Of a stretch of 64,000 nucleotides of DNA, positions 52,378-61,462 are shown in pieces. Each line of letters opens with the position of its first letter. The first letter of the stretch is position 1. The position numbers and the translations under genes are program-made. The stretch comes from an uncultured Pseudothermotoga sp. (GTDB lineage: Bacteria > Thermotogota > Thermotogae > Thermotogales > DSM-5069): NCBI GenBank assembly GCA_937995655.1, contig CALKJI010000003.1, positions 41,337 to 105,336 of the forward strand, in the 5' to 3' direction. Below the pieces are notes generated by a model. It searched no databases, was not told the origin of the DNA, and saw only the letters and a list, made by a program, of their open reading frames with translations.

Positions 52378-52463
52378 CTCCTGAAAAATCTTTCTTTCAA
52401 ACCTCCAAATCTTTAAGGAGTTATAGAACTGTACGATAAAATATATTGACAGAGGTGTCTGAA

Positions 52464-53966
52464 TTGAAAAAATACTTCATTTTGCTTGTGACAGTATCTA
52501 TTTTAATAGTATCATGTCAACAAAAACAGAGTAAGAGTATAAGTGTATCTTTGTCTGTGGACCCTTCTGCGCCAACACCCAGTAGTACTGTAACAGTGCA
52601 ATTGTTGGCATCCTTTGATGTAGGCATTACCCTTGCAAAGATCAGCATAGATGGGCAGACCGTAAAGAATGGCGATTCACTTCCCTTGCAATACCTTTGG
52701 ACCCCCACAAAGGCAAAGACCTATATCCTGGAAGGTTATGTTGAAAACATATTCGGTCAAAAGGCATCCGACCAAAGAATAATAAAGATTAGCGACCAAA
52801 CCCCCCCTGAAATAAAAAAGATCTCTGTTCTACCCTCTTTCCCAGAGGAAAATTCTGATTTCTATCTTTCCGTTGAAGCTCAAGATTCTGAGAGCGATGT
52901 CATCAAAGTCTCGGCAAAGGTGGCAGATCGGTCGGTTGAAGTACAGACTATCGATAGGCCAATAATTCTTAAACTATCTGATCTCGCTCAAGGTGAATAC
53001 CCTTTGAACATAGTTGTTTCAACCAGCGATATTGCAAAAACATCTACCTCAACGGTTTTGCATATTCATCCATTAGATACGAGCACACCAACCGTCGAGT
53101 TGAGCTTTCAAAAGGACTTTTTCTCTAAAGAAGAAAATGTAATTTTGAATCTGAGAATAGAAGATGACACTCAAGTCGCTTCTGTTCAAATAGAGTGTGA
53201 TGGCGTCCAAGTCTATACCAAAAACTTTGAGAAGACAACTTCAACCAGCCTATCTGTGAATCTGGGTAAGTATGATCAGGGCTATCATTCTGTGAATGTA
53301 ATGGCAAAAGATATACGCGGTAAATCGGTTGTCAAAAGTGGAGTTTTTCCAGTTGGCATGGGACGGGCCACAGCAAAACTTATCATAGATAACCAAAACC
53401 CAAGCCCCGCAGATCTAGTGAAGTTAAGCGTTCAGACAGACGAAACGAATGTAAAAAGAATTACTTTCTATGTAGACGACCTGAAAATTTCAGAAGGTAC
53501 GGCATTTGACTGCTTTTGGAAAGCAGTTTCTGGAAGACACCTTCTTTCTGTTTTTTTGGAAACATTGGACGGTAGAGTTGGTACAGACGCTATCCAAATC
53601 GATGTGCAGGACAACAGGCCTCCAAGGATCGAATCCTTCACAATCGGCTCAGCTGAATTGAAAACCGATCGATTCACCAGCATCTTTGCAGGCTATTATG
53701 GGATAAGGTTGACGATAAGGGACGACACAGCCGTGAAACAAGGAGGAACGATTACAATAATCCTATCATCACAGCCATTCCCAAGGCTAAATCCTGTTGG
53801 AACGATAATTCTTGTTCAAGAAAGTCTTTCAGATGATCTCAAGAGTGCCAGTTACGTTGGTGCCACATCTTTCACACAAGGTAGGTTCTACCTTATACCT
53901 AATGGTGTAACCGACATCTATGAAAATCAACTAAACAACCTTTCCTTCCCGGTTGAGGTGAGATGA
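52464..53966 (+). CDS. Lipoprotein with about 5 bacterial Ig-like repeats
   Basis: Lipobox IVSC; repeated D..PP.I / A.D..S / D..G units; TTG 52464 follows GAGGTG. Confidence 0.8.
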   Translation: MKKYFILLVTVSILIVSCQQKQSKSISVSLSVDPSAPTPSSTVTVQLLASFDVGITLAKISIDGQTVKNGDSLPLQYLWTPTKAKTYILEGYVENIFGQKASDQRIIKISDQTPPEIKKISVLPSFPEENSDFYLSVEAQDSESDVIKVSAKVADRSVEVQTIDRPIILKLSDLAQGEYPLNIVVSTSDIAKTSTSTVLHIHPLDTSTPTVELSFQKDFFSKEENVILNLRIEDDTQVASVQIECDGVQVYTKNFEKTTSTSLSVNLGKYDQGYHSVNVMAKDIRGKSVVKSGVFPVGMGRATAKLIIDNQNPSPADLVKLSVQTDETNVKRITFYVDDLKISEGTAFDCFWKAVSGRHLLSVFLETLDGRVGTDAIQIDVQDNRPPRIESFTIGSAELKTDRFTSIFAGYYGIRLTIRDDTAVKQGGTITIILSSQPFPRLNPVGTIILVQESLSDDLKSASYVGATSFTQGRFYLIPNGVTDIYENQLNNLSFPVEVR

Positions 53967-56900
53967 TGAAAAAACTAGTTCTGGCTCTGCCAGTACTTTT
54001 TCTTATAATATCCTGTGCCATGTTGGACAGAGTTCCTCCCCTTCTTGATGTATCGCTATCTGAAATGAGTGAAATTGCCGGTGAAAATTTCGTCTTGAAC
54101 ATTTCTGTTTCAGATCAGAGTGGCATAGACAGGATAGAAATCTATGCGAACGACAGACTCATATTCAAGACAATCCAAAGTGGGCAGATCCCCATTCCTG
54201 CCCCCTATGGATCCTTCACATTGAAAGTTGTTGCCTACGATAGAGCAGGAAATTCTGCATCAAAAGTCATAGGTTCTTTCAAAACCAAAGACCTCAAAAA
54301 ACCTGAGGTATCTGTAGATTACACTCCAAAGGGTCCTAGACCGTCTGAGACGGTCACTGTGACAGTTTCGGCTCAAGACAATGAAAGCGGTATCAGAACA
54401 GTGGGACTGAGAGTAAATAAGAAAGAAGTACAACTCACCAACAACAGATACACCTTCCAAGTTCAGGCAGGCGTTTACGAGTTTGAAGCCTATGCGATCG
54501 ATAATGAAGGAAACGACAATCTTGCAAAGACCACGCTGAATGTTTCTGTAGCTGGCGACAGTTCAGGACCAGAGATAGAGTTTGTAAACCTTATCAAAAA
54601 ATCAAAACCAGGAGCGGTTGTGAACATAACGATCCTTGCCACAGATGAGAGTGGTGTTTCAAAGATTGTTTTCAACGATGGTAAAGAATCGATTTACGTA
54701 CCTACCATGCCTGCAACACAACTGATTTGGAATGTAACCAGAAATGTGGGAACGACTAACCCCTACAGTTTTTCGGTCACGGCATACGATTCAAGAAACA
54801 ACTACACAACCAAGACAGGTTCAATCGAAATAGGTACAAACCTGCCTCCTTCTGTGTCGATTGAAGTTGACAAACCCGCACCAAAAGAAGGGGAAAAAGT
54901 TTTGATAACAATAAACGCAAGCGACGATTCTATGGTAAAACAAGTTGTTTTGTACATAGACAATGTCCCTGTAAGGACCTTCAACCAACAGCCCTATAGA
55001 CACGAATGGACAGCGATCAAGGGAATTCACAAAATAAAGGCCGTCGCGACAGATGACTCGAATGAATCCACCGAAGCCTTCTATACGATAAACGTTGGAG
55101 TCTTAGACACCGAAGCTCCTGTTATCTACTTTACATCTCCCTACGGGGTCGTCGTAAACGAGGCCTACACCTTCTATGTTTTTGTAACAGACAATGTTCA
55201 AGTGAGTGAGGTAACCTTTAGCTTTAAAGGTCCTGTACAAAAAGGCCCCATCCTTGCCTCGACGATAGGTGGGGGTGTTTTCACAATCACTGAGACTTTC
55301 ACAGAAAAAGGAAACTATGAAGTGATAGTTGTGGCAAAAGATAGCTCTAATAACAGTTCTTCTCAAAAAGGCCAGTTTCCCGTAGATGAAGCCTATATAG
55401 TGAAAGCACCAAAGATAAAGGAATTTTCCTATGCACCTTCGGTATTGAATCAAGGAGAGAGAGTTCATCTTAAGGTCATAGCAGAGGATGATATAAGCTT
55501 GAACAGATGTGACTTTTATGTGAACGGTGTTAAGAGGATCTCTGTGCAACCATCGGTCAATGTCTTTGAGTGGGATTGGACCTTTACAACGCTTGGAGTT
55601 CATGATATAAAGGTCGTCGTCATAGATACCGAGGGGTTCACAGCAGAAGCAACCGGTACAGTTACAGTAGTCACCTCAAGACCCATTGTGAGAATTTTAC
55701 AACCAGAAGATGGCTTCAGAACACCTTTTGCCGATAATCTAAGCCTTTCATTGAATGCACAGGTTGTAGATACGAACAATCCTTCCGTTGCCTATTTCGA
55801 CATCAAAGGACCAATAGATGAAAGAATACCCGTTACTGCTTTGGGTGAAGGACCAGTCTATACCTTCAGTGCAAGATGGGAAGTTAAGAAATATGGAGAG
55901 TATCAAATTGATTTTTACTACAAGAACAACATCAATCTGTCCGATGCCACCTCTGTTTCTGTGAACATATTAGACCTTGGCGTGGTCTTTGAAACACCAT
56001 TACCTGGGCAACAACATCAATGTGGATACAACCTTACGGTGAGAGCAAAGGTTAGTGTATATCTAACAGAGAATGAGAAGTTCGAAATTTCTTACGCTTC
56101 CAGAAAATTAGAACTATCGGTGCCCAATCCTATCGTCACAACTTCCACGCACAACATCTATGAAACAACGATACCGTCAACCTTCTTTACCGAACCAGGT
56201 TCCTACACGATAATCTTTTCTGGAAAGACTACGGCAAACGAGGAAGGAAGAGGTACCACATATGTGACTGTCATTGATACAGAACCACCTGTCATAACTC
56301 AAGCAAGGATCGATTCAAGTGACATCGTGGAAAATGGCGTGTATAACGTCGCCAAGTCGGCTAGACCCGTCATAAGTGTCACAGCAACAGACAACAGACA
56401 AATCAAGAGCATAGAACTTCAAAAGAGAGTTTCTGGTGTCTATACAAATATTCATTCAACAACAACGAATTCTCTTAACTATACGATACAGACTTTAGAT
56501 TCCTTCGAAAACTATTTCAGAATCCTTGTAAAAGACCTGGAAAACAATCAAACACTTCGTAACTTTGTGATCTACGCCTATGAACAGAACACTCCAAATG
56601 TAGAAGGCTTCAGATCGATGCAGCTTTACCCTTCGGCTCCGGTCTACGATATGAATGCGCAACTTCTTGTACAGATCAGGGGCAACTTGAACAACAATAC
56701 ACAGTTCAAGATAACGGATGACACCGGTATCAAGGAAGTCAGAGTCAGAGTTATAGATGCACAGACCTATGGTAACAATTACAGTGAAACGGTTAAGAAA
56801 CTTTACGAATACACCACAGGGAACCTTTTAAGGGAGATCTTCATAAACAATCAAGATGTCCCAATGTTTACCCCGGCATTAGTTGGAACCTTTAAAGTGG

Positions 56901-58771
56901 TGCTAGAGGCGATCGATGTCTTTGGCAACGCAAAACGTATATCGGAACAGAACCTTGTCGTTGAAGATCTAACCCCACCGATAGTGAACATAGACATACC
57001 TGCCGGTAAGTTCTATGGAACAAACAGCGAAGGTAGAAAGATCTTAAGAACGTTGACAGATGTGAAGGTCAGTTTCTTGGACAACACGGAGCCCATATAC
57101 AAAGTGGAACTTTGGATCGCTGATGCCGCTGGAAGTACACAGAAGGTTGGTGAAAAATCAGACCTTGCTACAAACAGTTGGACCTTCGAAAACATACCGC
57201 TTTCGAGCTATGTTGATGGAATTGCCAAATTTAGGGCAATAGCAACCACAACAAGTGGTGCAGCAGGTGAAGGTGAGCTTATAGTAGTCATAGACAACAA
57301 AACATCTCCAGTAGTTACTATACAACTTCCACCAGCTTCAACCTTTGGTTCAAGGCAGGTTTACAGAGGCACCATCATCGTCACAGCACAGATAACCAAT
57401 ATAGATGTACCTTACGATGTACACAAGGTGGAACTTTACATGGACGATATAAAAAGGATTGAAGTCAAATCACCTGTCTTAGAAGATGGTGAAGTGAAAT
57501 TCAAATTGTCATTGGACACTACATTATACAACGATGGAAATCACAAAATTGCCCTGAAGGTCTATGATTTTGCCAACAACAGCTCTCAACTCACAGATTC
57601 AAGATCTTTTGCAGAGGTGATCTTCGACAACAGTGCACCGGTTCTGCTCAGTGACAGTGGAAGGATCTATACTAATCAGACCACAGTGACACTGCAGATC
57701 GATGAAAGCTATGGCTTAATAGAAGCTATTTTGAGATTGCCAGACAGATCGATCGATCCGATACCAGGTACCCTCACCTTTGTACATGGTCTATCTCAAA
57801 ATACTTTAAGCACCTTCTCTCTGTACATGAAAGACACAGCCGGAAACGTTGCAAACTACTCTGGAACCTTGTACTATGATACACAAAGGCCGAATATAAC
57901 AATACAAGGAGTTCAACCTACAAATCTGGCATCTGAAACTGGCGCAAGATTCACATTGAGTTTCTCAGACAATTTGACCAGCCTCTCGACCTTGAGGGTC
58001 TATGAGAATGCTACGTTTAAAGAATCACTTGCTCTATCATGGGGTCAGACGAGTACGACGTGGGTATACAATCCGCCGAGCAACTATGAGGGGCAAAGAA
58101 CCCTTGCCTTTGAGGTCTCTGATAGAGCGGGCAACTTGAGCACCCAGGAACAATACATTATGGATGTGGACACCTTCCCACCGAGGATAAATTCCTTTAG
58201 CTGTGATATTACCACTTTAGTAGATAACATTTATTACACAAATAGTGGCTCATCAAATGTTACATGGTCCGTCAATGACAACTATTTTGACAAGGTCACC
58301 CTTGAGAACAATTCAGTACGGGTCCTAGATGATGGACCGAGCAGTGGATCTAACAACGTTGGGCTCAATCTTGGTCTGAACGTAATAAAACTCACTGCAT
58401 ATGATCTTGCTAATCACAGTACGGTACAAACGATCAGAATTATTCGTGATAATCAAGAACCACAGATCAGCAACGTGAAACTGGCTTCTCAAAATGTGAC
58501 AGAGAACGCCACAACAACGATCACAACAACTGGAAACAAGCCCTTGGAATTTTCAGTGATGGAACTTTACATCATGTGGTATCAATCTTCTGTCTATGTG
58601 AACAACATCAAAGTCACCTCCGGAGACGATTGGCTAATAACTGGGACGAATCCAAACTATGCGGTGTCAACGATGGTCAACATCTCTGGGAATTCGAAGA
58701 TCGAGATCATCTTGAAAGACTATGCAGGCAACGAAAGAAGATTCACCTTCTACGTTGAAGTTAGCCAGTGA
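53963..58771 (+). CDS. Giant lipoprotein (1602 aa) with about 16 bacterial Ig-like repeats
   Basis: Lipobox IISC; ~100-aa beta units bounded by D..(P)P.(V/I) and A.D.AGN; no catalytic or anchoring C-terminal domain recognised. Confidence 0.85.
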   Translation: MMKKLVLALPVLFLIISCAMLDRVPPLLDVSLSEMSEIAGENFVLNISVSDQSGIDRIEIYANDRLIFKTIQSGQIPIPAPYGSFTLKVVAYDRAGNSASKVIGSFKTKDLKKPEVSVDYTPKGPRPSETVTVTVSAQDNESGIRTVGLRVNKKEVQLTNNRYTFQVQAGVYEFEAYAIDNEGNDNLAKTTLNVSVAGDSSGPEIEFVNLIKKSKPGAVVNITILATDESGVSKIVFNDGKESIYVPTMPATQLIWNVTRNVGTTNPYSFSVTAYDSRNNYTTKTGSIEIGTNLPPSVSIEVDKPAPKEGEKVLITINASDDSMVKQVVLYIDNVPVRTFNQQPYRHEWTAIKGIHKIKAVATDDSNESTEAFYTINVGVLDTEAPVIYFTSPYGVVVNEAYTFYVFVTDNVQVSEVTFSFKGPVQKGPILASTIGGGVFTITETFTEKGNYEVIVVAKDSSNNSSSQKGQFPVDEAYIVKAPKIKEFSYAPSVLNQGERVHLKVIAEDDISLNRCDFYVNGVKRISVQPSVNVFEWDWTFTTLGVHDIKVVVIDTEGFTAEATGTVTVVTSRPIVRILQPEDGFRTPFADNLSLSLNAQVVDTNNPSVAYFDIKGPIDERIPVTALGEGPVYTFSARWEVKKYGEYQIDFYYKNNINLSDATSVSVNILDLGVVFETPLPGQQHQCGYNLTVRAKVSVYLTENEKFEISYASRKLELSVPNPIVTTSTHNIYETTIPSTFFTEPGSYTIIFSGKTTANEEGRGTTYVTVIDTEPPVITQARIDSSDIVENGVYNVAKSARPVISVTATDNRQIKSIELQKRVSGVYTNIHSTTTNSLNYTIQTLDSFENYFRILVKDLENNQTLRNFVIYAYEQNTPNVEGFRSMQLYPSAPVYDMNAQLLVQIRGNLNNNTQFKITDDTGIKEVRVRVIDAQTYGNNYSETVKKLYEYTTGNLLREIFINNQDVPMFTPALVGTFKVVLEAIDVFGNAKRISEQNLVVEDLTPPIVNIDIPAGKFYGTNSEGRKILRTLTDVKVSFLDNTEPIYKVELWIADAAGSTQKVGEKSDLATNSWTFENIPLSSYVDGIAKFRAIATTTSGAAGEGELIVVIDNKTSPVVTIQLPPASTFGSRQVYRGTIIVTAQITNIDVPYDVHKVELYMDDIKRIEVKSPVLEDGEVKFKLSLDTTLYNDGNHKIALKVYDFANNSSQLTDSRSFAEVIFDNSAPVLLSDSGRIYTNQTTVTLQIDESYGLIEAILRLPDRSIDPIPGTLTFVHGLSQNTLSTFSLYMKDTAGNVANYSGTLYYDTQRPNITIQGVQPTNLASETGARFTLSFSDNLTSLSTLRVYENATFKESLALSWGQTSTTWVYNPPSNYEGQRTLAFEVSDRAGNLSTQEQYIMDVDTFPPRINSFSCDITTLVDNIYYTNSGSSNVTWSVNDNYFDKVTLENNSVRVLDDGPSSGSNNVGLNLGLNVIKLTAYDLANHSTVQTIRIIRDNQEPQISNVKLASQNVTENATTTITTTGNKPLEFSVMELYIMWYQSSVYVNNIKVTSGDDWLITGTNPNYAVSTMVNISGNSKIEIILKDYAGNERRFTFYVEVSQ

Positions 58772-58790
58772 AGGGAATCGAGCACTGTGG

Positions 58791-58815
58791 AAGGGGCAGG
58801 TCTCTGTCCCTTTTT
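58791..58815 (+). terminator. Terminator after the Ig-repeat operon
   Basis: AAGGGGCAG-gtct-CTGTCCCTT followed by TTT. Confidence 0.8.
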
Positions 58816-58885
58816 GTTAACAAAAAATCAACTGAACAGAACATTATTGAAATGATCTTTGAGACAATAAAGAGTCATAATCGAT

Positions 58886-59908
58886 TTGACAAAAACCATG
58901 GAGGTGGTTTTTACGAAGGTGGGGTTAGCCTATAATCTACCAAAGGGAACTAGGCCAGATGTGGAAGACTGGGAAGCAGAGTACGACAGTATGGAAGTCG
59001 TTATGGACATAAAAAGATCTATTGAGGCTGGAGGACACGAAGTTATCTTGATGGAAGCCGTGCCCGAAAAATTTATTCCCATCCTCACCTCTGAAAAGAT
59101 CGACATTGTCTACAACTTTGCAGAAGGCACATTTAGTAGAGCAAGAGAAGCTCAGGTTCCGGCGATACTCTCTTTCTACAATATTCCCCATACATGCTCA
59201 GACGCCACGACATTAGCAGTGTGCCTTGACAAGGCACTGACAAAACAGATACTTTTAACAAAAGATATTAAGACCCCACGATTTCAAGTGATTCGTTCAC
59301 CGGAGGAAAAACTCAGGAAAAACATGAGATTTCCTTTGATCTTGAAACTCAATGCCGAAGGTTCTTCAAAAGGTATCTCTGAAACAGGGCTTGTACACGA
59401 TTACGAGGAGTACAAAAAAGAAATCGACAGATTATTTTCAATCTACAACGAGCCAGTTCTTGTGGAAGAGTTCATAAGAGGTAGAGAATTCACCATAGGT
59501 GTTCTGCAAGAAGGTAACAACTATCGTGTTCTTCCCATAATGGAGATCCATTTCAAGCACGGTAAAGAATTCTACAGCTACAAGGTTAAAAAGAACTCAG
59601 ATTATTATGTAGATTACACCTGTCCCGCAAAGATCGACCAAAAACTTGAAAGGAAATTGAAAAATATGGCCGTCAGAATTTGTAAAACCTTAGAGATCAA
59701 GGATGTAGCAAGAATGGATCTGAGGGTTTCCCAAGAAGATGGTAACCCCTATTTTCTGGAGATCAACCCACTTCCGGGAATGGCGAAGGGATTTTCGGAT
59801 CTACCAAGGATAGCCGAGATAGCCGGTTTGGCCTATGAAGACCTGGTACTCCATATTCTTGACAGCGCACTTCAAAGAAATGGTTTAGTGAAGCCTATGT
59901 ATGTATAA
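58886..59908 (+). CDS. ATP-grasp ligase of the D-Ala-D-Ala ligase superfamily, non-canonical
   Basis: LDKALTK, LKLNAEGSSKGI, VEEFIRGREF, ARMDLR, FLEINPLPG; lacks the HG..GEDG motif of true Ddl. Start is uncertain. Confidence 0.85.
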   Translation: MTKTMEVVFTKVGLAYNLPKGTRPDVEDWEAEYDSMEVVMDIKRSIEAGGHEVILMEAVPEKFIPILTSEKIDIVYNFAEGTFSRAREAQVPAILSFYNIPHTCSDATTLAVCLDKALTKQILLTKDIKTPRFQVIRSPEEKLRKNMRFPLILKLNAEGSSKGISETGLVHDYEEYKKEIDRLFSIYNEPVLVEEFIRGREFTIGVLQEGNNYRVLPIMEIHFKHGKEFYSYKVKKNSDYYVDYTCPAKIDQKLERKLKNMAVRICKTLEIKDVARMDLRVSQEDGNPYFLEINPLPGMAKGFSDLPRIAEIAGLAYEDLVLHILDSALQRNGLVKPMYV

Positions 59909-59921
59909 ATGGGGGTGATAG

Positions 59922-60296
59922 ATGGTGAACCCCAGAGATTTTAAAAAAATAGCGATCATCGGCGCAAGTGAAAATGATAAGAAATACGGCAACAAAATTG
60001 TGAAGGATTTGCACAGCAAAGGCTTTGAAGTCTTTCCTGTGAATCCTAAAGGTGTTATGATCGGAAGTATCAGGTGTTTTAGAAGTATCGAGGAATTGCC
60101 AAGGGACGTTGAACTCTTGGTTTTCGTGATTCCCCCTGAAAAGGGTTTGGAAGAGGTACAAAAAGCAGTAACTATCGGTTACAAAAGGTTTTGGTTTCAG
60201 CCAGGTGCCGGTTCAAAGGAAATTGAAAACTTCTTGAAAAACAAAGATGCTGAATACTCAATAGGAAGGTGCATAATGGTAGAAACAAGTTTTTAA
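59922..60296 (+). CDS. CoA-binding protein (YccU-like)
   Basis: IAIIGAS...KYG, VFPVNP, WFQPGA, CIMV. Confidence 0.9.
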   Translation: MVNPRDFKKIAIIGASENDKKYGNKIVKDLHSKGFEVFPVNPKGVMIGSIRCFRSIEELPRDVELLVFVIPPEKGLEEVQKAVTIGYKRFWFQPGAGSKEIENFLKNKDAEYSIGRCIMVETSF

Positions 60297-60322
60297 CCCC
60301 GCTAAAGCGGGGTTAAATTTTC
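60293..60322 (+). terminator. Intrinsic terminator
   Basis: TTAACCCCGC-taaa-GCGGGGTTAA followed by ATTTTC. Confidence 0.8.
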
Positions 60323-60514
60323 TTAGATTGAAAAAAGTTGCTACAGCGAATAACAACAAAAAACAGAGAGATAAAAGTAGAAAAACAGTCTTGTAAAGTT
60401 CTCCTTTTTCTTAAAAGGTTAGATTTGTTTTGCAATCGTTTGTTTTACCGATTGTCGTTCCTAATTCATCGGAGTAAACTATTGTTGTATCCATACCTAA
60501 GGAGGGTGATCTTT

Positions 60515-61462
60515 GTGAAGAAAGCAGTTCTAATGATGTGCTTGGCAATTTTTGTATTTTCAACACTCCTTGGAGCAAATTTTCCCACAAAGCCTATCAC
60601 TTACGTGATCTGTTTTGATCCAGGTGGAGAGTCAGATATTACAGCAAGGATTCAGCAACCATACCTCGAAAAGATCCTTGGGGTTCCCATCGTGATAACC
60701 TACAAGCCGGGTGGAGGAGGAGCCACTGGTTGGTCTGAATTGGTGAACCGTGCAGTGCCCGACGGGTACTCTATATATGGAACTAACCTACCTCACATAA
60801 TATTGCAGCCAATCCAAGGTGGTGTTCCCTACAAGACCGAACAAATCGAAAATATCTACTTTTTCCAAACGACACCCTGTACATTAGTAGTACCGATCGA
60901 CAGCCCCATCAAAACATTTGAAGACTTTGTGAAATTTGCCAGCGGCAAGAAATCTGTCTTGGTAGGTGGCAGCGGACAACCCACTGCAAACAGCTTTGCA
61001 ACACTCAGATTGGCAAAGGTGGCAAAACTCAATCTCACCTACGTTCCATTCACCGGTACTGGCACGGCTATACCAGGTCTATTGGGTGGTAACGTCGATG
61101 CTCTGATGACCTACACAACCGTTTCTATTCAATACAAGGATAAACTTCGAACGCTCGCAGTTGCTACAGAACAAAGAGTTCCATTCCTGCCCGATGTGCC
61201 AACCTTCAGAGAATTAGGTTATGATGTGGTGGAGAAAGCCTTCCGCGGCGTCGCAGTACCCCCCGGAACACCTGCAGAGATCAAAAGAATACTTGAAGCG
61301 GCATTCGCGGAGGTCAACAAGAACCCAGAGGTCAGGACAAAGATGGAAGAGCTGGGTTTTGTTTTAGAGGACTACAACGAAGCGGAAGCAAAAGAGCTCG
61401 TAGCCAGATTGATCCCATACTACAAAGAACTTTGGGTTGAAACACAAAAAATGGGTAAATGA
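60515..61462 (+). CDS. tctC: Tripartite tricarboxylate transporter substrate-binding protein
   Basis: FPTKPIT, PGGESD, KPGGGG, PDGY, VPFTG, LLGGNVD, LPDVPTFRELGYD, PPGTP. GTG 60515 follows AGGAGG. Confidence 0.93.
   Translation: MKKAVLMMCLAIFVFSTLLGANFPTKPITYVICFDPGGESDITARIQQPYLEKILGVPIVITYKPGGGGATGWSELVNRAVPDGYSIYGTNLPHIILQPIQGGVPYKTEQIENIYFFQTTPCTLVVPIDSPIKTFEDFVKFASGKKSVLVGGSGQPTANSFATLRLAKVAKLNLTYVPFTGTGTAIPGLLGGNVDALMTYTTVSIQYKDKLRTLAVATEQRVPFLPDVPTFRELGYDVVEKAFRGVAVPPGTPAEIKRILEAAFAEVNKNPEVRTKMEELGFVLEDYNEAEAKELVARLIPYYKELWVETQKMGK

Follow-up and report, generated by a model that had tools for sequence, protein, structure and literature searches.

The envelope that defines the Thermotogae, the toga, is still poorly understood, and its known long-range connectors are the coiled coils of Omp-alpha and tubes of the pilus or secretin type. 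Leptospira LigA and LigB combine a lipobox with 12–13 divergent immunoglobulin-like (Ig-like) domains of the Big_2 type, in an organism that possesses the Lol pathway, while in the cadherins and in the extender domains of RTX adhesins Ca2+ sites stiffen the chain. The current study concerns two overlapping genes, here termed A and B, in a 64,000-nucleotide (nt) stretch of an uncultured Pseudothermotoga sp. (contig CALKJI010000003.1 of GenBank assembly GCA_937995655.1, positions 41,337 to 105,336 of the forward strand), which is called the window below. Gene A (positions 52464–53966 of the window) and gene B (53963–58771), which like all features located here lie on the plus strand, are open reading frames encoding lipoprotein precursors of 500 and 1602 amino acids (aa) that contain five and sixteen Ig-like beta-sandwich domains, respectively. 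Based on the computational analysis presented here, we favour, with a probability of roughly 0.4, the view that A and B form a rigid, non-enzymatic, lipid-anchored pair of Ig fibres in which A sits at the base of B and which is anchored in the membrane and crosses the periplasm.

The likeness of the pair to LigA/LigB and to OmpL47 of Leptospira lies in the N-terminal lipobox, the long run of divergent Ig-like domains and the lack of an enzyme domain. However, the Lig domains belong to Big_2 (PF02368), to which neither A nor B gave a match at E-values up to 1, while the OmpL47 models of NCBIfam (NF047441 and NF047446) were matched at 38.7 bits against a cut-off of 250 (equivalog) and at 36.8 bits against 40 (domain), i.e. 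below both cut-offs. Furthermore, the Lol pathway of Leptospira contrasts with the lack of LolA here, where in addition two paralogous chains are coupled. The extender regions of the giant adhesins of the RTX/type I secretion system (T1SS) class (Salmonella SiiE, Marinomonas MpIBP and Aeromonas 6xi1) are likewise Ig rods with short linkers and acidic junctions, but the pair is devoid of GGxGxD repeats, of a C-terminal T1SS signal and of adjacent T1SS genes, its domains are old and all different where those of the adhesins are near-identical repeats, and its predicted anchor is an N-terminal lipid. Clostridium thermocellum CbhA, with its X1/Fn3-like modules (3pdd and 3pe9), and a chitodextrinase with an Ig-like module (9x9r) provide the nearest solved relatives, alongside PKD domains; they were matched by residues 215–376 of B (E-values of 1.8e-9 to 6e-5) and residues 310–385 of A, yet such modules occur there as one or two spacers inside an enzyme, whereas here the whole protein is made of them.

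Bacterial alpha-2-macroglobulins (A2M; E. coli YfhM/ECAM and Salmonella A2M) are likewise lipoproteins of about 1600 aa that consist largely of beta-sandwiches, although A and B lack the thioester domain, the bait region, the CxEQ motif and any A2M Pfam domain. Within the phylum, Omp-alpha (OmpA1) of Thermotoga maritima is also a rod on the scale of the periplasm, of about 50 nm as against an estimated 55–70 nm here (PMC10160955), but it is composed of an SLH module and a coiled coil and occurs phylum-wide, whereas the pair combines a lipobox with beta-sandwiches, gave no SLH match and is not phylum-wide. A five-Ig protein of the T. maritima toga (R4P1L1; 10.1101/2022.09.22.508938) matches A in its number of domains but showed no sequence relationship; when the A profile was run against three complete genomes from g5, the Thermotoga-like genus, it found no match even at an E-value of 0.05, a comparison made without the R4P1L1 sequence itself. 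Taken together, the pair would work in the manner of the Lig/OmpL47-type lipoproteins and the adhesin extender rods but is a member of none of these groups, and it is unrelated to Omp-alpha. A and B represent a family that is new but of a familiar type, and its new elements are the paralogous short partner of B and the exchange of partners between lineages of the order.

Both proteins satisfy the PROSITE-type lipobox rule, which specifies a basic n-region, a hydrophobic h-region and the pattern [LIVMFWSTAG]2-[LIVMFYSTAGCQ]-[AGS]-C with the cysteine at position 15–35. The signal peptide and lipobox of A (MKKYFILLVTVSILIVS-C18; 52464–52517) and those of B (MMKKLVLALPVLFLIIS-C18; 53963–54016), identified by a regular expression match, both place the cysteine at residue 18 (...LIVS-C18 in A and ...LIIS-C18 in B). 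The lipobox is kept across the listed orthologues with the exception of three A-family entries whose gene calls carry N-terminal extensions; C18 of A is nearly invariant over the order-wide alignment, and both S17 and C18 of B are invariant in 11 orthologues. The genome encodes Lgt (PF01790, 242 bits) and LspA (PF01252, 111 bits), while LolA was not found in it, and neither A, B nor the adjacent genes contain an usher or a signal of the T1SS, type V (T5SS) or type IX (T9SS) secretion systems. Likewise, the conserved neighbours of A and B include no transporter for large proteins. A and B are therefore probably lipid-anchored at Cys18, and with Lgt and LspA but no LolA in the genome, and no dedicated exporter next to the genes, the predicted anchoring site is by default the outer leaflet of the cytoplasmic membrane.

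The stop codon of gene A and the start codon of gene B overlap in an ATGA (53963–53966), suggestive of translational coupling, and this junction, together with the same kind of B signal peptide, was present in all nine orthologous loci that were read (L004, L005, L006, L007, L010, L020, L023, L024 and L025). The sequence-only reading of this DNA had described two lipobox proteins overlapping by ATGA, and the coordinates, the lipoboxes and the junction were all reproduced in the present analysis. The alignment of B contains 538 invariant positions, and as at least ten orthologues at 61–87% identity align with only 34 gapped columns in 1616, A and B are real genes and not chance open reading frames.

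A recurring boundary motif, D-x-x-x-P-x-[IVL], divides A into 5 and B into 16 units of 84–127 residues. The domains of A lie at approximately residues 25–109, 110–204, 205–299, 300–381 and 382–500, while the domain boundaries of B are at residues 22, 110, 199, 291, 382, 477, 571, 665, 772, 874, 1001, 1112, 1222, 1306, 1403 and 1496. The DxxxP boundaries, Pfam, profile-profile comparison and the secondary structure of the AlphaFold models agree on these counts, as had been proposed from the letters alone, where about five and about sixteen Ig-like units were thought to make up almost the whole of the two proteins. Matches to Pfam were confined to bacterial Ig-like families: Big_7 (PF17957; gathering cut-off 24.1) was matched by two stretches of A with 42.6 bits and by six stretches of B with 110.8 bits, B in addition matching Big_13, Big_3_2, PKD and Y_Y_Y. 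When the 21 units were compared by hhalign, A1–A4, B1–B6, B14 and B15 formed one related set, while B7–B13, B16 and A5 were not linked to other units by this profile-profile comparison. A search of the fifth domain of A for a hidden fold yielded no cohesin and nothing beyond weak matches of the PKD/cadherin-like and DUF7034 types.

Folded models cover A and residues 566–1602 of B, while residues 1–565 (B1–B6) were assigned by Pfam profiles and homology to A. The AlphaFold model of A, based on an order-wide alignment of 16 sequences, reached a predicted local distance difference test score (pLDDT) of 88.3 and a predicted template modelling score (pTM) of 0.72, and consists of a signal helix followed by strands only, arranged in five sandwiches of 7–8 strands. 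That of B 566–1602, based on 11 orthologues (pLDDT 79.2, pTM 0.37), contains strands only, in ten sandwiches, without a single helix of four or more residues; a pTM of 0.37 is what would be expected for an extended chain. The domain parsing by AlphaFold that had been suggested as a check thus returned all-beta, multi-sandwich chains. Counted from the final strand of a domain to the opening strand of its successor, the linkers are mostly 3–7 residues long, while residues 657–672 and 877–921 of B form longer junctions of low confidence and highly conserved sequence. Three stretches of B (568–592, 657–688 and 877–921; window positions 55664–55738, 55931–56026 and 56591–56725) are near-invariant in orthologues while of low model confidence, and include the motifs PLPGQxHQCG and RGxLNNNTQFKxTDDTG; such stretches could be hinges or binding sites. 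All three cysteines of B outside the lipobox (516, 687 and 1414) are invariant.

Foldseek comparison of both models with the PDB returned Ig-, FN3- and MG-domain arrays, which for A were complement and alpha-2-macroglobulin MG rings, a mastigoneme and GhpA, and for B 566–1602 the top matches were titin in the thick filament, DSCAM, titin I65–I70, GhpA, a mastigoneme and RTX-adhesin repeats (6xi1). As the template modelling scores (TM-scores) were 0.1–0.2, the resemblance concerns single domains. No enzyme, transmembrane or SLH feature was identified in A or B, nor any hydrophobic stretch besides the signal peptides, and a motif scan of both proteins detected no CxEQ, RTX (GGxGxD), LPxTG or dockerin-like motif. 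The absence of an enzyme or sorting domain, put forward in the sequence-only reading, therefore holds for Pfam, the motif scan and the models alike, and the hidden catalytic domain that this reading had named as evidence against itself was not seen, residues 1–565 of B being judged by profiles and homology to A. Its claim that the repeats differ at the DNA level, and are thus old, was also borne out: Tandem Repeats Finder and a repeat search detected no tandem or dispersed DNA repeat of more than 30 nt within 6.4 kb, and since, in addition, identity between domains is only 22–30%, the Ig-like repeats are judged to be old and divergent.

Residues 1–390 of A are collinear with residues 2–389 of B (hhalign probability 98.6%, E-value 1.2e-15, 368 aligned columns), and the order-wide A profile matches the N-termini of B proteins from other genomes with E-values down to 5e-28. 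In light of this paralogy, B is read as an A-like base to which twelve domains have been added. The base, as delimited by hhalign, comprises the lipobox and four domains (residues 1–389; 53963–55129), while for the distal twelve domains (residues 382–1602; 55106–58768) profiles, model and Foldseek gave no counterpart in A. Conservation along B is uneven, mean column identity being highest in B1–B8 and B11 (0.79–0.86) and lowest in B14–B16 (0.64–0.69), which makes the predicted membrane-distal tip (residues 1306–1602; 57878–58768) the most variable part of the protein.

Aspartate and asparagine account for 10 of the 17 invariant columns of the order-wide A alignment, where approximately 2 would be expected (P ~1e-6). 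Invariant aspartates occupy the linkers of A (D111, D205 and D383), and further invariant residues lie in the B-C and F-G turns of the domain that follows (D234/D235 and D283; D420 and D484/N488). Most B domains repeat a three-part pattern of DxxxP, then xDxSG, then DxxGN, the elements of which would be expected to meet at the N-terminal end of the Ig domain, near the preceding domain. By the precedent of cadherins and RTX-adhesin extenders, we infer that these conserved clusters are putative Ca2+ sites that stiffen the chain.

The distribution of the two genes across the Thermotogae, another check that had been suggested, differs between A and B. B is confined to the family of the window, which according to the names on the matches covers Pseudothermotoga and the 'Thermotoga' caldifontis group, and to one genus of a neighbouring family. 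Within the family its length is 1595–1606 aa at 61–87% identity, while in the neighbouring-family genus it is shorter and split between two overlapping frames (719 and 639 aa). For A, 15 orthologues share 43–87% identity, and full-length relatives of 500–620 aa with a lipobox and 20–31% identity were detected in 51 of 151 genomes of the phylum, spread over three families of the Thermotogales order and one family of another order. The A family amounts to about twenty clusters at 50% identity in a library of 1.8 billion representatives; a homologue search with the order-wide profile gave no further distant members, and a search for related loci with a narrow alignment returned only four loci, all of Pseudothermotoga. 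B is always accompanied by A, whereas about 30 genomes, one close relative among them, have A alone, and these data indicate that A is the older and more widespread of the two.

No relative of A was found in eight genomes of the Thermotoga-like genus g5, three complete ones being rechecked at an E-value of 0.05, and the pair is also missing from close relatives, namely genus g3 and part of g2. Owing to its loss in close relatives and its absence from g5, the pair is considered to be an accessory, lineage-specific system and not a universal toga tether, which weakens the general link to toga tethering that had been drawn from the sequence. Signs of decay or rearrangement, which may be assembly errors, were observed in several relatives (L021 7675–9210 of genome G008, G004:C1:511547–513042, L023 3716–9749 of G007 and L015 1705–5780 of G034); these cases include one genome with A but not B, one with A in two frames and one metagenome-assembled genome in which a TAA interrupts B near its N-terminus, besides the two-frame B of the neighbouring family. 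Public records label the two proteins 'hypothetical protein' or 'Ig-like domain-containing protein'. Literature searches found no publication on A or B, and neither is mentioned in the Fervidobacterium multi-omics literature or in the P. elfii pressure study.

In sister lineages A has other partners. In Fervidobacterium, Thermosipho and others, the A-like gene is followed not by a gene for an Ig rod but by one for a secreted protein (840–935 aa) whose signal peptide is of the ordinary kind and which combines a PQQ-like beta-propeller with a dockerin-like module of twin Ca-loops at the C-terminus, while a third gene encodes a lipoprotein of about 200 aa. Such three-gene cassettes were located at L013 7172–12129, L014, L016 7020–12118, L018, L019 8197–13203, L026 6463–11182, L029 and L032. 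Dockerin_1 was matched by two of four propeller partners at 14.3–14.7 bits, below its cut-off of 22.9, and two propeller partners carry the UniRef name 'Dockerin domain-containing'; neither A as a whole, its fifth domain nor the small lipoproteins gave a cohesin match. When the genome to which the window belongs was searched for the beta-propeller and small lipoprotein partners, no homologue of either was found. The cassette may constitute a lipid-anchored display system, and, given the exchange of an Ig rod here for a propeller elsewhere, the A family looks like a conserved component alongside which different large secreted partners are encoded. In Thermosipho ferrireducens, a gene for a 1193-aa enzyme of glycoside hydrolase family 57 (GH57; L013 3439–7020) precedes the A-like gene; with its CBM48-type modules and an SLH-like Glucodextran_C module at the C-terminus, this enzyme is probably an amylopullulanase bound to the wall or toga.

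In the favoured arrangement of a fibre pair that crosses the periplasm, A and B would be made together from one message, and A would lie alongside the homologous base of B and pair with it, so that the fibre is held by two lipid anchors at its foot. Ca2+ bound at the aspartate clusters of the linkers and the B-C and F-G loops would stiffen the chain, as it does in cadherins and RTX-adhesin extenders. Ig-like domains are 3.5–4.5 nm long, a range at which B would measure approximately 55–70 nm and A approximately 18–22 nm. From an anchor on the outer side of the cytoplasmic membrane, B would extend through the wide periplasm of the toga type as far as the toga, and may act as a spacer or tether, or hold something at a set distance. 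Cryo-electron tomography of T. maritima has given a lateral periplasm of 70 ± 10 nm, of which Omp-alpha spans about 50 nm from the peptidoglycan to the toga (PMC10160955). The reach of about 60 nm that the sequence-only reading had assigned to the long protein is compatible with this periplasm width (PMC10160955), a match that is suggestive and that, together with the fixed domain number, would fit a ruler. Its proposal that the short protein acts as an adaptor gains support of an indirect kind, in that A is older, B never occurs without A, and A1–A4 are paralogous to the base of B.

A more specific, and in our estimation doubtful, version of the same idea regards the pair as an Ig-based envelope ruler beside the Omp-alpha coiled coil. 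B, with a length of about 64 nm, would span the entire periplasm as far as the toga and A, at about 20 nm, would reach the peptidoglycan, which in T. maritima is placed some 20 nm above the membrane by subtracting the 50-nm span of Omp-alpha from 70 nm. The number of domains would then set the envelope spacing of Pseudothermotoga, and the A family would be a membrane-proximal socket for lineage-specific distal modules, i.e. the Ig rod here and the dockerin-bearing beta-propeller in Fervidobacterium and Thermosipho.

A number of observations weigh against a periplasm-crossing fibre. The widths of the periplasm were measured in T. maritima, a member of a genus that has neither gene, and the loss of the pair from g3 and part of g2 marks it as dispensable. 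The tip is the most variable part of B, while a strut that docks to the toga would be expected to conserve it. AmyA, a putative lipoprotein of T. maritima, is reported to face outward on the toga (PMC4529897), and the absence of LolA consequently does not fix the location of the pair; in addition, the toga fraction of T. maritima is rich in a five-Ig 'S-layer-like array protein' (preprint 10.1101/2022.09.22.508938). Finally, the pTM of 0.72 obtained for A could reflect a defined bent or compact arrangement.

Several of these points are equally those of an outward adhesin, a possible though less probable explanation over which the periplasm-crossing fibre is only slightly favoured. The pair would then reside on the toga, for example in lipid patches, with A as base or adaptor and B projecting about 60 nm so that its variable tip binds substrates, minerals or cells. 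That B14–B16 evolve fastest and that the distribution is patchy and accessory would suit such a role, as would the reports of AmyA (PMC4529897) and of the five-Ig array protein (10.1101/2022.09.22.508938) in the toga. Big_7-type modules are mostly found in giant multi-repeat proteins of 1000–7000 aa (13,047 profile matches), the nearest sequence relatives in the PDB are extracellular spacers of glycoside hydrolases and PKD domains, and the pairing of A with a secreted beta-propeller bearing a dockerin-like module in sister lineages is a feature of surface display. However, a lipoprotein of 175 kDa would have to cross a mostly proteinaceous toga in an organism in whose genome LolA was not found and without a transporter, usher or T1SS, T5SS or T9SS signal in or beside the genes, and a strictly fixed domain number is unusual compared with adhesins, which vary in repeat number. 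The affinity to hydrolase spacers could also be taken to indicate that the Ig- or X-module-like domains bind a polysaccharide or other polymer and keep it close to the cell for hydrolases and ABC importers, as surface lipoproteins of the SusE/F type do. We regard this as unlikely: alongside the relatedness to the X1/Fn3-like modules of CbhA and to a chitodextrinase, it is favoured by weak Glucodextran_B matches, a CBM_6 match in the G034 orthologue and the GH57 enzyme with its SLH-like module adjoining the A-like gene of T. ferrireducens, but all matches are to Ig modules of the linker type and none to a binding site, none attains the cut-off of a CBM family, and in the genus the pair is not accompanied by a glycoside hydrolase or a sugar transporter.

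Less likely still is a lateral assembly of A and B into a sheet resembling a surface layer (S-layer), at the toga or the membrane, in place of single rods. Ig-domain S-layer proteins are known, the T. maritima toga contains large amounts of the five-Ig array protein (10.1101/2022.09.22.508938) and the pTM of A suggests a defined multi-domain shape; against this, no homology to proteins of the Thermotoga genus was detected, A and B contain neither SLH nor another wall-binding module, and a 1:1 coupling of 5- and 16-domain chains is an atypical design for a lattice. The listing of complement and A2M MG-domain arrays by Foldseek, together with the lipobox and a size that matches a lipoprotein of about 1600 aa with MG domains, raised the question of a protease trap that guards the periplasm, like E. 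coli YfhM/ECAM. This identity is effectively refuted by the lack of a thioester domain: no A2M, MG, bait-region or thioester-domain match was obtained from Pfam, CxEQ is absent, the model of B 566–1602, where the helical thioester domain would be expected, is free of helices of four or more residues, and TM-scores of only 0.1–0.2 denote single-domain similarity.

If the pair does form a fibre across the periplasm, a second connector of periplasm-spanning length, Ig-based and lipid-anchored, would be added to those known for the toga, and it would offer a simple test of whether the length of a rod sets envelope spacing, as the length of Lpp does in E. coli. The A family, as a conserved five-domain lipoprotein beside varied large secreted partners, may point to a display or tethering module of the phylum that has not been described before. 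Should the pair be an ordinary surface adhesin, the main gain would lie in the correction of the current database labels.

Gene A starts with TTG, and a Shine-Dalgarno-like AGAGGTG, read from the sequence, is located 6 nt ahead of it (52451–52457). The best sigma-70-like match (52446–52473; TTGACA-16-AAAAAT, with TG upstream) extends over the start codon of gene A and was rejected as its promoter, as it cannot serve the annotated start. Gene B has, 20 nt beyond its end, a G+C-rich hairpin (~58789–58810; core GGGGCAG-GTCT-CTGTCCC) with TTTTTGTT after it, the whole element, delimited by sequence and predicted fold, occupying 58789–58818. The hairpin and T-run of the single terminator noted from the sequence are thus present, but with a folding energy of −16.7 kcal/mol the z-score is only −1.4, which is thermodynamically unremarkable, and a consensus scan did not report the hairpin; for these two reasons it is termed terminator-like and no more. 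The gap between gene A and a divergent hydrolase gene is 86 nt. Downstream, and kept in the genus, 58886–61462 encodes a 340-aa ATP-grasp protein (D-Ala-D-Ala-ligase-like), a small protein of the CoA-binding type and a TctC-like binding protein, all assigned by reading the sequence only. The genus-conserved neighbours of the pair accordingly comprise an alpha/beta hydrolase, the ATP-grasp protein and the TctC-type binding protein, while different neighbours occur in the sister genus. There, a secreted protein of about 395 aa is encoded divergently to A (L020 14128–15315 and L021 9654–10844) and is kept where B has been lost; with the N-terminal sequence ...W-Q-x-x-F-G-G-x-x-x-D-Y-A-R-D-V, it is possibly a beta-propeller repeat protein.

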